DNA from: Eledone cirrhosa
Lineage: Eukaryota
Assembly (NCBI GenBank): GCA_964016885.1
Contig: OZ024751.1
Span: forward strand, 22,196,001-22,260,000
DNA: 64,000 nt
Direction of reading: 5' to 3'
Shown here piece by piece: positions 9,542 to 57,610 of the stretch. Every line of letters starts with the position of its first letter. The stretch's first letter is position 1. The notes under the pieces were generated by a model. The model was not told the DNA's origin. It did no database searches and saw only the letters and a program-made list of their open reading frames with translations. The position numbers were made by a program, and so were the translations under genes.

Positions 9542-9746
9542 GGAACCAGTAAGACCCCGACAGCTGAGCTCAAGCCGTTTCGACGGCTAATTCTGGACTG
9601 AATTAGCCGTCCAGAATTAGCTGTCGAAACGGCTTGAGCTCAGCTGTCGGGGTCTTACTGGTTCCTATTACCCACTCTACTACCTCAAGTATTGAGTACT
9701 TTGGTGCGTTATGGTCCACCTGGTTCCTTACCACATTTCCTTCGTT
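9542..9746 (+). mobile_element. PLE-type mini-element family A: 5' inverted arm, HHR 3' half and tail, in (TA)n
   Basis: GAAA-cggct-tgagctc-agctg-TC-ggggtc (stem III plus GUC). The ~55-nt 5' arm is the reverse complement. The tail ...gtactttggtgcgttatggtccacctggttccttaccacatttccttcgtt is shared with other copies. Confidence 0.8.
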
Positions 9747-9801
9747 ATATATATATATATATATATATATATATATATATATATATATATATATACATAC
9801 A

Positions 9802-9952
9802 CCGTATTTCCTGGCGTCGAAGACGCTACTTTTTCCCTAAAATAAGTCTTAAAAATCTACCATGCGTCCTGGAGGCCGAAGGTTGTTCATTATTTTTTTT
9901 TCAATAGGGTGCGTTCTCGAAGACAAAGCGTGTTCGGCGCCGGGAAATACGG
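9802..9952. mobile_element. Tc1/mariner (pogo-like) MITE
   Basis: TIRs ccgtatttcctggcgtcgaagacgc / gcgtgttcggcgccgggaaatacgg in a TA context. Confidence 0.8.
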
Positions 9953-9991
9953 TATATATATATATATATATATATATATATATATATATAT

Positions 9992-10049
9992 AGGAGTAAG
10001 TAAGACCCCGACGGCTGAGCTCAAGCCGTTTTGACGGCTAATTCTGCAC
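9992..10049 (-). mobile_element. Family A fragment (inverted arm only)
   Basis: gtaagaccccgacggctgagctcaagccgttttgacggctaattctg between TA runs. Confidence 0.75.
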
Positions 10050-10970
10050 TGAAATATATATATATATATATATATTATATATATATATATATATAATATA
10101 TATATATATATATAGTTCAAAGAAACAACAAACAGAGGTGCAATTAGTTTCACGCTTTATATGGAAAAGGGGAAAGAAAGTTCGACGTGTCGGGCTTTAG
10201 CCCTCCTACAGGAGTACAAAAATAGAGATAGGATCACAAATGAAAAATACAAACTTATATATATGTATATATATATATATATATATATATATATATATAT
10301 ATATATATATATATATATATATATATGAAGAAGTAGCTCTCAGTACCGACAGGTACAGGATAGATAATGTAGAAAATATGTTTACACCTTACGAGAATTT
10401 AGACCTAAAGTTTGTTGAATATGTATTATTCATAGTCATTCTTCATCAGGTCTCGATCGCGAATTCTCAGATGTTTCATCATCGTCGATTCTTCTGGATT
10501 CAGTAATGTTGGCGTATGTCGAGGCTGCTGTTGTTTTATAATAACTAATGCCAACATAATTCCTTGCAGTATTTGATCCCACGTTGTACGCTCGGAGTTA
10601 AAAAAGCCACTTATTTGTGTTAGGAGTTGCAATCTGTAAGATGGAAAGACCAACAGAAACATAGTTTTCTTGGTTACATCTAATTACTGACTTCGTTCGT
10701 TTCGTTTCCTATTTTTCATTTTTCATGTTTGTTCTGTAAAATAATGCGTTTATTTTCTGTAAAAATATCAAACACTAATTGGTTTGACAAAGTTATTACA
10801 ATGCAATTTAGAGTTAAAGGAGTGAAAACTTGTTTTCATTCCTTTATTTCTTTCTAGCTTGCATTATACCAGCTTTCTCAAAACAATCCTAACCACTTAT
10901 TTCTCAATATTACATATAAATTATTCTTCTTAATTATTAATTGTTTTTTTATATCTTTTATGGCTGCCAG

Positions 10971-10979
10971 GGACAACGG
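10971..10979 (+). CDS. Candidate 9-nt microexon GGACAACGG
   Basis: Pyrimidine tract ttgtttttttatatctttta, then tggctgccAG, the exon, and donor GTAAGT; a UGC motif lies just before the AG. Confidence 0.55.
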
Positions 10980-11742
10980 GTAAGTAGCAGGTTTTTAATC
11001 TCTTATTTACAAAAATATGTAGATTTTAGAAATTATGTGGATTATCCTAGTCTAAACTGGATTTCACCATTGTCAGTTTTTGATATTTACCCATCCTAGA
11101 TTTGGCTGAATCAATTATACTTGTTGAAAATATTTTCTCGGCTTGGTCTGGCATAAAAACTGAATAATTTCATTAGGATTGTTCGGATAAACTCCTTAAC
11201 AGTTATTTTCTTCTAAGAATGCATCGAAACAGAAAATCTTCAGAGACATTTCAGATTTTTGTATAATCTGTTTAGATCATTTATCTAGCTCTTGATACAC
11301 ATGAGAACAAAAAAGATCACTACAGCCTACGTGATCACATACCAAAATATGTCTACTATTTTTGGTTTTATTCTTGAAGAGAAAAATAACAACAATAGCA
11401 ATTGTTTCGTCACGCGAGATTTCTTGAAGTAATTTTATTGTTCAACGAAGGACACTTCACTTGAATTAAAATTGATCTCTGATCTATTATGTTCAAAGAA
11501 TCGCCATTCCTAGTTTCTTTACTTAAAGTATTTGTGTATTTTCCGTATTCCTTGGAGTATGATTCATCTAAGCGTTAGAATATTCGTTTGTTCTCAGTAA
11601 TAAAACTTTTTAACAAATACATTTTTTACTACTGACAATCATTTGTCATATGAAGTAATGAATATGTCCAATTATTTAATCAATTCATTTGGATAATGCT
11701 AAAGATAGCATTATATTTTAGATTGGTTATGTTATAATACGT

Positions 11743-11836
11743 AGGCAGTGAATTGGCTAAACCCATCGAGGTCAACTTAGCCTTTCACCCTTTCCAGATC
11801 GATAAAAGACATACCAGTCTAGTACTGGGATCGATT
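11743..11836 (+). mobile_element. Internally deleted SINE
   Basis: ggcagtgaattggc...gaggtcaacttagcctttcaccctttccagatcgataaaa. Confidence 0.7.
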
Positions 11837-12081
11837 TTTCCCCATCTCGCTCTCACTCCCACACCCGTCACTCACTCTCCCTTACTCTCTCTCTCTCTCT
11901 TACTCGCACACCCATTCACTCTCTCACTCCCACACCCACTCTCTCATTCTCTCTATCTCCAAGATATCAGCTGTGTTCAAATCTGGAGAGGTATGGGCTC
12001 CACCAGGTTTTCAAGATATCAACCACATGCCGTATGTCACGACAACGCCCCATACATACACACATTATGATATGTACAGTA

Positions 12082-12272
12082 GGGCGGTGGATTGGCAGTA
12101 TCCGTAGAGGGTCGGACGCCATGCTTTGACGCATAGAGTTACGGCCCTTGCCATTCTGAGTTCGAATCCCGCCGAGGTTAACTTTGCCTTTCATCCTTAC
12201 GGGGTCGATAAAATAAAGTACCAGTAATGCACTGGTTAATTGCTGGCCTTGTGCCAAAAAGTGGAAACAATT
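12082..12272 (+). mobile_element. tRNA-derived SINE with TSD
   Basis: Full consensus; attatgatatgtacagta is duplicated on both sides. Confidence 0.92.
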
Positions 12273-55051: not shown

Positions 55052-55273
55052 AGGACCGTGGATTGGCAGTACCGGTAGAGGGTCGGACGCCATGCTTTGC
55101 AGCATAGAGTTACGGCCCTTTATGATCTGAGTTCAAATCCCGCCCAGGTTAACTTTGCCTTTCATCCTTACGGAGTCGATAAAATAAAGTACCAGTCACG
55201 CACTGGGGTCGATTTAATCGACTTTCTCCTCCCCCAAAATTGCTGGCCTTGTGCCTATATAAGAAACCAATAT
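55052..55273 (+). mobile_element. tRNA-derived SINE (long-tail subfamily) with TSD
   Basis: aatattacgcttaac is duplicated. Confidence 0.9.
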
Positions 55274-55309
55274 TACGCTTAACTTAAACTCTTATTGTAT
55301 TTGTTGCAG

Positions 55310-55349
55310 CGAACAGAGAAGGCTGGCTGATCCTGTGAAGACCCATTAG
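55310..55349 (+). CDS. Candidate alternative terminal exon
   Basis: Acceptor ctcttattgtatttgttgcAG; short frames RTEKAG*, EQRRLADPVKTH* and NREGWLIL*. Confidence 0.25.
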
Positions 55350-56701
55350 CCTTTGGAAAGCAGATTCTTTTCACTACCAAAAATCAGCTTTTATTGTCTC
55401 TATTAACTAACACACATCTGATAGTGCTAACCCATCCAGAGTTGGTATTCTCTGAAAGATCTTATCATGGTATAACGGAATAACGGAACAACACTTGACC
55501 AGCAACAGCAGCAGCAGCAGCAACAACAACAACAACAACAACAACAACTATTTTGACGAGCATAACAAGATGAACATTAGCACAAATAGGTACAGCGGTA
55601 ACATAAAAAATAACAATAGCACCAAAATAACTACACTAACAACAGCCAAATACGATGTTCATTTTTGTATAATATATATATATATATATATATATATATA
55701 ATATATATATATATATATATGTTCAGAAGAGATTGTTTTAGTAAAAACAGGAGAGGGCAGGAGAAAGCTCTCTACGTTCATAGTTTGTAGTTATTATGAA
55801 TAAACGATTTATGTAACATCACCATCTTTCTTAATGTTATTCTTATATATATATATATATGTGTGTGTATATATATATTATATATATATGTGTGTATATA
55901 TATGTATGTATATATATGTATATATATATATATATATATAATATATATATATATATATATATATATATATATATATATATATATATATGTGTATATATGT
56001 ATGTATATATATATGTGTATATATATGTATGTATATATATATATGTATATATATATATGTATATATATGTATGCATATATATATATGTATATATATATAT
56101 GTATATATATGTATGCATATATATATATGTATATATATGTATATATATATATATGAATGTATATATATATGTGTATATATATATGTATATATGTATATAT
56201 ATATATATATATATATATATGTATTTATATATATATATGTGTATATTTATATATATATATGTGTATATATATATGTATATATATGTATGTATATATATAT
56301 GTATATATATATGTATATATATATATATATATATGTGTATATATATATATATATATATATATATGTATTTATATATATATATGTGTATATATATATATGT
56401 ATATATATGTATATATATATATATACGTATATATATGTATATATATATATATATACGTATATATATATATATGTATATATATATGTATATATATATATAT
56501 ATGTATATATATATGTATATATATATATATATGTATATATATATATGTATATATATATATATGTATATATATATATGTATATATATATATATATGTATGT
56601 ATATATATATGTATATATATATATATATATAATCAAGGTTTAGCAAATAATGAAAAAGTTTCAAAATAAATTTTAAAAAATTGACTTTACCTACTATAGT
56701 T

Positions 56702-56784
56702 ACCTTTACCGATCGGTTTCGAATCTCAAAAATAAACGGAGACCATACGGCCTTCGTTGCAAAGAAAGATTCTCGTCAGAAGGT
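56702..56784 (-). ncRNA. Intact type-I hammerhead ribozyme with long stem-II loop
   Basis: acctt-CTGACGA-gaatct...agattc-GAAA-ccgatcgg-TA-aaggt. Confidence 0.85.
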
Positions 56785-56820
56785 TCTTTTCATTCGAAGA
56801 ATATAAAATTCTTGAATTTA

Positions 56821-57020
56821 NNNNNNNNNNNNNNNNNNNNNNNNNNNNNNNNNNNNNNNNNNNNNNNNNNNNNNNNNNNNNNNNNNNNNNNNNNNNNNNN
56901 NNNNNNNNNNNNNNNNNNNNNNNNNNNNNNNNNNNNNNNNNNNNNNNNNNNNNNNNNNNNNNNNNNNNNNNNNNNNNNNNNNNNNNNNNNNNNNNNNNNN
57001 NNNNNNNNNNNNNNNNNNNN
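56821..57020. other. Assembly gap
   Basis: 200 N. Confidence 1.
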
Positions 57021-57181
57021 AACCAGTAACATGTAAATAAACAAATAAATAAATGAACATAAACACACACAGACACCCGGATGTGGCGCATGCGCAGACT
57101 GAGCACACAACACACACACAGAAACAAAATGGCGTAGGACAGAACAAAGGAGAGGCACAGAAACAAAGAAAGGAATCCCCA

Positions 57182-57224
57182 GTCACTGAAGAGGTCACAG
57201 AGTGTGTGACGAAAGAACTATGAC
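57182..57224 (+). ncRNA. Minimal hammerhead ribozyme (family D)
   Basis: gtca-CTGAAGA-g-gtcaca...tgtgac-GAAA-gaac-TA-tgac. Confidence 0.7.
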
Positions 57225-57420
57225 AATATATAAACAACTATCTGGTTGTGGAACCAACCAACCAACCAGAAATTTATAAATTTATAAATTTATTATAAAT
57301 TTATTATAATAAATTGAAGTGAAAGCAACTGGTGCATGTGTTTCTTATTGGCAACATGACCCTCCCAAAGTATAACAATATGTATATATATATATATATA
57401 TATATATATATATATATATA

Positions 57421-57610
57421 TTTAATATAGAAAGGCTTTTACAGGACTAGAACTGTTTCATTCGGGAGAAATCATCAGTAAACGATGATTTCTCCCGAAT
57501 GAAACAGTTCTAGTCCTGTAGAAGCCTTTCTATATTAAATATTTGTACTCTGCTTTGTATTGAGTACCTTACTTACTGTGCTTACCCCCGAATGAACCCG
57601 GGATAAACTT
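57421..57610 (+). mobile_element. Family B fold-back with axis at the HHR core
   Basis: ...ggagaaatcatc-agtaaac-gatgatttctcc...GAAA-cagttctagtcctg-TA-gaagcc; tail homologous to 42230-42295. Confidence 0.8.

Follow-up and report, generated by a model that had tools for sequence, protein, structure and literature searches.

Endonuclease-positive Penelope-like elements (EN+ PLEs) are described as carrying one open reading frame (ORF) with a reverse transcriptase (RT) and, at the C terminus, a GIY-YIG domain, and their copies occur as partial tandems with a head-to-head inverted copy, a tail at one end only, a microsatellite target and a hammerhead ribozyme in the pseudo-long terminal repeat (pLTR) (PMC8557442, PMC3846280). 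The inversion is ascribed in these reports to self-priming and the tail to endonuclease resolution, and PMC3846280 itself noted that self-priming needs an antisense template to produce head-to-head arms; the origin of PLE inverted ends, tails and pLTRs is an acknowledged open question (PMC8557442, PMC2377424). All of these traits are shared by three PLE families, here called A, B and C, that are represented in a 64-kb stretch of the 3-Gb genome of Eledone cirrhosa (contig OZ024751.1, G000:C11:22196001-22260000; the window, below). In these families the axis of the palindromic copies is very likely the RNA start of the element, and the two arms are probably two target-primed complementary DNAs (cDNAs). 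The tail is ~80–105 nucleotides (nt) long here versus 30–40 nt in the EN+ PLEs of those reports and, unlike in those elements, most family A copies take the form of palindromes of 200 bp whose 5′ boundary is sharp to the base, with an extra G.

In vitro, the anole Poseidon element PAc has been shown to cut and extend both target strands and to begin reverse transcription at two internal sites delimiting the tail; it is predicted to be a dimer (PMC11167929). Two internal start sites bounding the tail and an AT-rich target are also found here. The PAc start sites, however, lie within the ORF, 111–118 nt in, on an AC-rich stem-loop that has no homology to the target, whereas those of the present families lie in the 5′ untranslated region (UTR), at UA dinucleotides matching (TA)n. 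Ribozyme cleavage is not needed by PAc, nor would it be here, and the portions of PMC11167929 available to us draw no connection from the two sites to inversion of the inserted copy or to cDNA run-off where the RNA begins.

The proposed route resembles L1 twin priming, in which a further cDNA is primed by the second target end and is then end-joined to the first through microhomology (PMC11702581). The second L1 cDNA is primed at chance internal microhomologies near the end of the first, which leaves nearly non-overlapping arms (PMC11702581), whereas here both sites are fixed and both cDNAs would usually copy the same 5′ segment. A literature search found no paper in which twin priming, or run-off at the start of the RNA, accounts for PLE inversions, and older Penelope reviews and supplements may hold part of such an account. 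In retroviral minus-strand strong-stop synthesis, priming near the 5′ end of the RNA yields a run-off cDNA that is short and often bears a base derived from the cap; the products considered here differ in that they would be target-primed, doubled and usually joined in place, with transfer hinted at by loci L063 and L148 only. Among ribozyme-bearing relatives, the Cercyon PLEs of Schistosoma have opposite-strand ribozyme pairs 100–700 bp apart and the U3–A8 core covariation that recurs here (PMC4209133); family A, unlike Cercyon, has a long stem II and a loop of ~30 nt with a predicted promoter.

Parent elements and abundance

Full-length Penelope-like parents were found for families A, B and C. 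The family A element at L096 carries an intact ORF of 719 amino acids, a partial tandem and an inverted tail-bearing arm, and the motifs of its ORF (QFDI, MGA, YRDD, VIY..YIG, CNLC and CKH) correspond to an RT with a C-terminal GIY-YIG domain and a CCHH-type motif. The family C ORF (L258) is 39% identical to that of L096, and the family B ORF (L186; frameshifted, with the N-terminal 473 residues compared) is 46–60% identical. Atlas neighbours of the PLE protein, at 0.96–0.99, include GIY-YIG and RVT_1 clusters, and Pfam and PDB sequence searches with the PLE proteins gave no match. Partial tandems with pLTRs, an inverted 5′-truncated copy and a one-ended tail are seen in L096, L254, L258, L259 and L186, and the pLTRs of the three families have no mutual similarity by BLAST. 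On the evidence of the ORF, the tandem and inverted structure, and the hammerhead in the pLTR, A, B and C are classified as EN+ PLEs. Family A also has a zinc-finger-like Cys motif between RT and endonuclease, CNCPDRSICPLDNRC, a Neptune/Nematis criterion that is read here from the motif only. A non-LTR retrozyme, defined in 10.64898/2026.07.22.740005 by tandem units each with a complete hammerhead, was considered and rejected, as the short family A copies are head-to-head or solo and without the core, and not tandem complete hammerheads.

The order in the parents is TATA-like box, +1, proximal site, tail, distal site and ATG. In family A, the proximal site is at +58 (TTCC/TA, the slash marking the arm end), the distal site at +138 (CTTCGT/TA) and the ATG at +232, and long copies extend upstream into the 3′ UTR and the GIY-YIG domain. 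Exact matches in the genome to a 25-mer from the family A tail number 26,582, and the family B and C tails have 16,165 and 1,248 matches; 14,747 family A palindromes are centred in one short zone, and with the 2,741 palindromes of one family B subfamily the two families together exceed 17,000. The inversions are a real feature of a known family, for which the mechanistic account would be new.

The palindrome axis and the RNA start

Arm ends were curated by hand for 97 of the first 100 family A tail matches on contig C1, 75 of them in two-armed units. Position +1 is the A of AGTCC in family A, and the corresponding boundaries are the A of AGATTCC in family B and the A of ATTCTGA in family C. 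The 5′ ends of 58 of the 97 tail arms and 58 of the 75 inverted arms lie within −5 to +7, concentrating at +1 to +7 and falling off sharply upstream. This 13-nt interval holds 58 of 90 tail-arm 5′ ends against 9% expected if they were uniform, which is far above chance, and the axes are non-random, as the sequence-only reading that preceded this analysis had expected. Solo non-inverted copies have the same 5′ boundary as the palindromes. Among the 50 family B palindromes listed (2,741 in all), two read at least three templated bases beyond the boundary. The family C site was predicted before inspection as the A of ATTCTGA, 31 nt 3′ of TATAAAAA, and of the 25 family C palindromes centred in the predicted zone, two read more than 3 nt beyond the site.

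The axis tracks the TATA-like box, which precedes +1 by 29 nt in family A, 30 nt in B and 31 nt in C, rather than the ribozyme: counted from where the core begins, +1 lies 43 nt downstream in A (within loop II), 6 nt upstream in B and 3 nt upstream in C. The context of +1 resembles the initiator consensus YYANWYY. These observations make it very probable that the palindrome axis is the RNA start of the element. In three family C loci (L217, L228 and L238), the tail arms start at −127 to −138, which is perhaps a second start site or a pause.

The extra G before +1

Among the 100 family A solo copies listed (122 in total), the junction reads (TA)n-G-AGTCC in 88 and C-AGTCC in 12, with 276 clean junctions; a G at −1 was seen in none of the family A parents. 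The raw G:C ratio was rejected as a test for a cap, being confounded by flank composition, and position controls were used instead. At the non-A starts 2, 4, 5 and 7, four junctions carry an extra G and 47 are clean (Fisher p = 0.007), seven carry it at the second A, +6, and the background of TATATG per TATAT is 6%. Family B solos have 19 G versus 5 C although the templated base is C (p = 0.007), and 7 of 50 family B palindromes have an unambiguous extra G. In family C, five of eight solos (two on one small contig) are of the G+ATTC type, at a site fixed in advance. An extra G derived from mRNA capping has been invoked for an L1-mediated insertion (PMC11702581), and no passage on a cap G was found in PMC5538555. 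The untemplated G is the expected trace of a capped RNA end, and with high probability +1 would be the capped start of the RNA.

Internal TA sites as probable priming sites

The inverted arm ends at TTCC/TA in 70 of the 75 two-armed family A units, despite many other TAs in the tail. The direct arm of L096 (L096/L165), 5 kb long, stops there too, as do the long arm L289 and a solo arm at window position 9993, where the site takes the form CTCC/TA of that subfamily and no partner arm is present that could have served as template; the full-length family C copy L258 ends at the equivalent proximal site. The distal arm end is also an internal TA, from which tandems run on into the ORF. Because full-length and solo arms end at one of these sites and tandems continue past the other, both are read as priming sites in the 5′ UTR, and on this reading an internal TA is an RT start site, more than a microhomology. 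The sequence-only reading had the inverted arm ending at a TA, which agrees with family A and with the large family C element of the window (TCTTTC/TA) but only in part with family B, whose arms end over ~12 nt, some of them off a TA. Its further proposal, that microhomology at the internal TA resolves the arm, is not supported, since the same TA is the 3′ end of full-length and solo arms and hence a priming site. One family A copy (43536 in the window) has a single T in common with its flank, and any target-site duplication is hidden by the (TA)n flanks, being seen by eye in L076 only.

Probably two cDNAs rather than one

If the inverted arm were copied by snap-back from a tail-primed cDNA, the tail arm should reach further 5′. 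In the 75 two-armed units, the inverted arm reaches further in 38, the tail arm in 25, and the two are equal in 12; where the asymmetry is at least 10 nt, the inverted arm is further in 16 and the tail arm in 3 (p = 0.004). The arms do not overlap in L100, L125 and L143, and in three family C units, L242, L244 and L255, the arm without a tail is the longer by over 1 kb. Twin priming predicts an RT start site at each flank and no fixed longer arm, and the units agree with this, with later deletions at the centre as a caveat. We consider it probable that the two arms are two target-primed cDNAs.

In the mechanism that we propose, the endonuclease would cut both strands of (TA)n, and each target 3′ end would pair with a UA in the element RNA and be extended. 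Where the start sites at the 5′ end of the mRNA are used, the cDNAs would exhaust their template after ~60 and ~140 nt, like retroviral strong-stop DNA, and the two cDNA ends would be joined by 0–4 nt of microhomology, by short untemplated bases or by fill-in after a brief fold-back. For long copies, the source would be either priming at the start sites in their 3′ copy or a jump made when the cDNA reaches the RNA 5′ end. Twin priming from two 5′ UTR sites, run-off at the capped RNA start and head-to-head joining are, taken jointly, likely enough to be our preferred account.

Several observations weigh against this account. In an unbiased family C sample, 2 of 30 tail arms stop at +1 and the others are scattered over more than 1.4 kb, so that family C rarely stops there, and its 25 palindromes at +1 compare with the 1,248 tail matches. 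In family A the box, TATTTAAA, departs from the canonical form and is degenerate in some of the subfamilies, and the Drosophila virilis Penelope promoter is described as TATA-less (PMC2377424). The flanks themselves give 77–83% G when TATATG is compared with TATATC, and the raw G:C ratio is near this background; +1 and the cap are deduced from DNA alone. At a threshold of 5 nt, the asymmetry of the arms is 20 versus 11, which is not significant (p = 0.15), and later deletions at palindrome centres could shorten either arm. Of 14 clear two-armed units of family C (from 20 regions), 11 have their longer arm on the tail side, as snap-back also predicts. Arms of mixed subfamily are found in 7 units (3 clean, 4 patchy) versus ~3,440 CG/CG units.

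A more speculative extension concerns how long copies are rebuilt. At L063 and L148 (G000:C1:493017 and 25028867), a tail arm beginning at +1/+2 is joined, without homology, to upstream sense sequence of the same element (3′ UTR, ORF), as if the template had been switched at the RNA 5′ end. It is conceivable, though we hold it unlikely, that twin priming is obligatory and that the run-off cDNA jumps to the ribozyme-cut 3′ end, with which it shares +1 to +41 in family A, rebuilding the pLTR and partial tandem; failed jumps would leave the tens of thousands of palindromes that record the start site, and the promoter in the loop would disable the 5′ ribozyme while keeping the 3′ one.

Alternative explanations

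The alternative that survives best accepts run-off at the RNA start and takes the inverted arm for a snap-back copy of a single tail-primed cDNA, stopped or cut at TTCC/TA, with the asymmetry due to later deletions; it has a small chance of being correct. Snap-back does occur: fold-backs of 3–5 nt beside +1, joined to (TA)n, are found in 10 of the 100 family B solos listed and in 2–3 family A solos, and true snap-back is a minor route. Short templated inserts at palindrome centres, such as window 9600–9608, point to a similar fill-in at joining. Downstream of the axis, moreover, a 3-nt match to (TA)n is first reached with the TAT at +59, the longer tail arms of family C fit, and the arms are almost always of one subfamily, although a shared subfamily fits one RNA read twice equally well and does not discriminate. 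Mixed-subfamily arms were likewise rejected as proof of two templates, being too rare, with four of the seven and L102 patchy, so that conversion or switching may explain them. Against snap-back stand the 38 units with a further-reaching inverted arm and the 12 with equal arms, the three family C units with a much longer tail-less arm, and the full-length and solo arms, which stop at this TA too. Nine of the 16 strongly asymmetric units have an inverted arm that ends within −4 to +5, so that deletion would need a one-sided stop at the centre, and palindromes with a tail on both arms, the simplest product of snap-back, number 1 of 75. In L218, L224 and L030, host flank is duplicated in inverted orientation around the (TA)n tract beside the insertion, as if a target end had folded back on itself.

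The RNA 5′ end at the axis might instead be made by processing, at a splice acceptor or by a nuclease cut, and not by transcription start. In A and B the +1 A lies within a YAG after a pyrimidine run, and Penelope is described as having a 5′ intron (PMC2377424), but the copies keep the AG, add only G or GG and have no common upstream exon, family C has no AG there and yet carries the extra G, and the TATA-like box lies at its near-constant distance in all three families; we regard processing as improbable.

Still less probable is the mechanism put forward in the sequence-only reading, in which the cDNA would prime itself on the hairpin of the hammerhead and microhomology at an internal TA would resolve the copied strand. 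Palindromes at junctions led to the proposal of self-priming in PMC3846280, the axes lie near the ribozyme in A and B, and ribozyme helices give junction homology in a few copies only (stem III in L079 and L133, stem I in L190). The 5′ strand of stem II, however, starts at −36 and is reached by 1 of the 75 two-armed family A units, so that the cDNA cannot fold back on stem II, and the junctions do not comprise both of its strands. From one family to the next the axis falls elsewhere on the ribozyme, non-inverted solo copies share the boundary, the inverted arm often reaches further than its supposed template, and the extra G is left unexplained. Nor is an axis at the ribozyme a rule, as had been suggested, given that the large family C element of the window folds within its ORF, that long family A head-to-head pairs lie 85 bp to 5.1 kb apart and that family C 5′ ends are mostly scattered.

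The palindromes were also said to have formed independently, on the grounds that their centres differ and that copy-specific variants are mirrored in both arms. Centres do differ, with 41 distinct ones in the 48 units whose arms are long enough for comparison, and most recurrent centres span subfamilies, but the mirrored variants are not copy-specific: ggaacgagtagg and ggaaccagtaag are subfamily haplotypes common to many copies. Of the differences recorded in these units, 62 are mirrored and at the level of the subfamily, 3 are mirrored in one copy of a further subfamily, and 53 are rare and one-armed. Independent formation stands on the centres, then, and not on the variants. That a few palindromic master elements, akin to miniature inverted-repeat transposable elements (MITEs), were amplified and their centres then decayed is very improbable, since the very high copy number and some recurring centres are outweighed by the number of distinct centres, the spread of most recurrent ones over different subfamilies, the long parents of the subfamilies that dominate the sample and the lack of the upstream box in short copies, and a single master MITE does not fit these centres.

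The hammerhead ribozyme

The minimum free energy (MFE) structure of the family A parent has stem I, core, stem II, GAAA and stem III, as in a hammerhead. In family B the hammerhead was recognized by eye and the MFE fold gives none, and in family C stem I could not be made out; an Rfam scan had no hammerhead among the matches listed (150 of 780), which are microRNA-type matches on repeats. The expectation of a family A parent with a CTGANGA core was borne out in that a complete hammerhead parent exists, with stem I (ACCCC) directly 5′ of the core, but not in the core itself: among the first 100 of 4,372 matches, 79 are UUGANAA (U3–A8), 19 CUGANAA, 2 UUGAAGA and none CUGANGA. Canonical CUGANGA 8–38 nt from GAAA gave 29 matches, none with stem I ahead, and these were set aside as junction or neighbouring sequence. 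Tail arms beginning near the predicted ribozyme cut number 4 of 97, with no evident enrichment. With the predicted family A promoter inside loop II, the mRNA would carry an incomplete ribozyme at its 5′ end, and cutting would be left to the copy at the 3′ end. At L096:6187-6310 the proximal RT start is at the base of an extended hammerhead stem I (GGAA/TTCC pairing), and the hammerhead fold may position priming even without setting the axis.

Copies within the window

The copies first pointed out in the window, at 9542, 23383, 23856, 31923 and 43536 (family A) and at 57421 (family B), are all head-to-head. The family A copies are without the 5′ half of the hammerhead, with centres 17–25 nt upstream of GAAA, and the family B copy folds at its CUGAUGA core, all as originally described. 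In each, a short inverted arm is followed by a centre that varies and then by a longer arm with the tail, and (TA)n tracts lie on both sides.

In the family A palindrome at 9542..9747 (+), the tail-less inverted arm (9542–9599) ends exactly at +1, the A of AGTCC, and is followed by the templated insert (9600–9608) and a tail arm from +2 (9609–9747). The solo tail-less arm at 9993..10053 (−) has its 5′ end at about −3. A copy at 13527..13660 (+) has a 9-nt inverted mini-arm beginning at the proximal start site, and a solo tail arm at 14026..14125 (+) starts near the predicted ribozyme cut site. The palindrome at 23383..23576 (+), of the CG subfamily, has an inverted arm to +5 (23383–23436) and a tail arm from +1 at 23437; contigs aligned over it have loose ends at +1 and TTCC/TA, with no listed piece across the unit, and are not used as support. 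Two tail-only fragments at 23589..23712 (−; 23589–23639 and 23654–23712) have one (TA)n tract in common. In the palindrome of a diverged family A subfamily at 23856..24044 (+), the tail arm starts at AGTTCGG (23903), 18 nt 5′ of GAAA, matching +1 of family A. At 31923..32130 (+), the inverted arm runs to +1 (31980) and is followed by a C, possibly an untemplated G on the sense strand, a templated insert and a tail arm from +2 at 31992. The old, diverged family A-like palindrome at 43536..43670 (+) has a tail shortened by (TA)n and a centre that cannot be placed.

The large family C element spans 4.4 kb, with arms of 1.85 kb. Its tail-bearing arm (24466..27001, −) holds a 5′-truncated RT, GIY-YIG, 3′ UTR, pLTR and tail, with the predicted +1 at 24730, and its tail-less inverted arm (27002..28849, +) ends at TCTTTC/TA; the axis (26427/27002) is away from the ribozyme. 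In the promoter region (28664..28704, +), the TATAAAAA box is at 28664 and the predicted +1 at 28695, and the CUGAUGA core starts 3 nt later. Family B is represented by a solo copy at 42223..42344 (−), reading (TA)n, G and AGCTTCC-TGATGA with an additional G before +1, and by the palindrome at 57421..57612 (+), whose inverted arm runs to the first C of CUGAUGA and is followed by a short insert and a tail arm that starts within the core.

Other repeats lie nearby. A further head-to-head family (33846–33990, 37680–37790 and 49900–50160) has CTGATGA-N-GAAATA hammerhead-like motifs with axes well upstream of the core, and a palindromic family with a short inverted arm and a tail in (TA)n (48558–48800 and 50552–50700) is probably another PLE. 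Inverted-repeat elements of no named family are found at 33478–33584, 42661–42917 and 18455–18545, and a broken non-LTR retrotransposon lies at 39289–41011 (−; RVT_1, E = 2e-17, with a weak zf-RVT). A CTGAAGA repeat with no obvious GAAA partner has two copies (17560–17700 and 57100–57270) and is also fused to family A starts in L036 and L048. In L080/L081, in L188/L189 and at window 23383–24044, the same (TA)n tracts contain clustered PLE copies that differ in subfamily and family.

Implications for Penelope-like elements

The thousands of independent junctions in this genome argue against self-priming as the main route to PLE inversions, and they tie the 2024 in vitro result of two start sites and extension of both strands to the inverted structure. 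They would also provide base-level predictions of start sites, with promoters readable from the DNA alone. For genomes rich in (TA)n, they carry a warning that MITE-like palindromes can be the run-off products of a retrotransposon.

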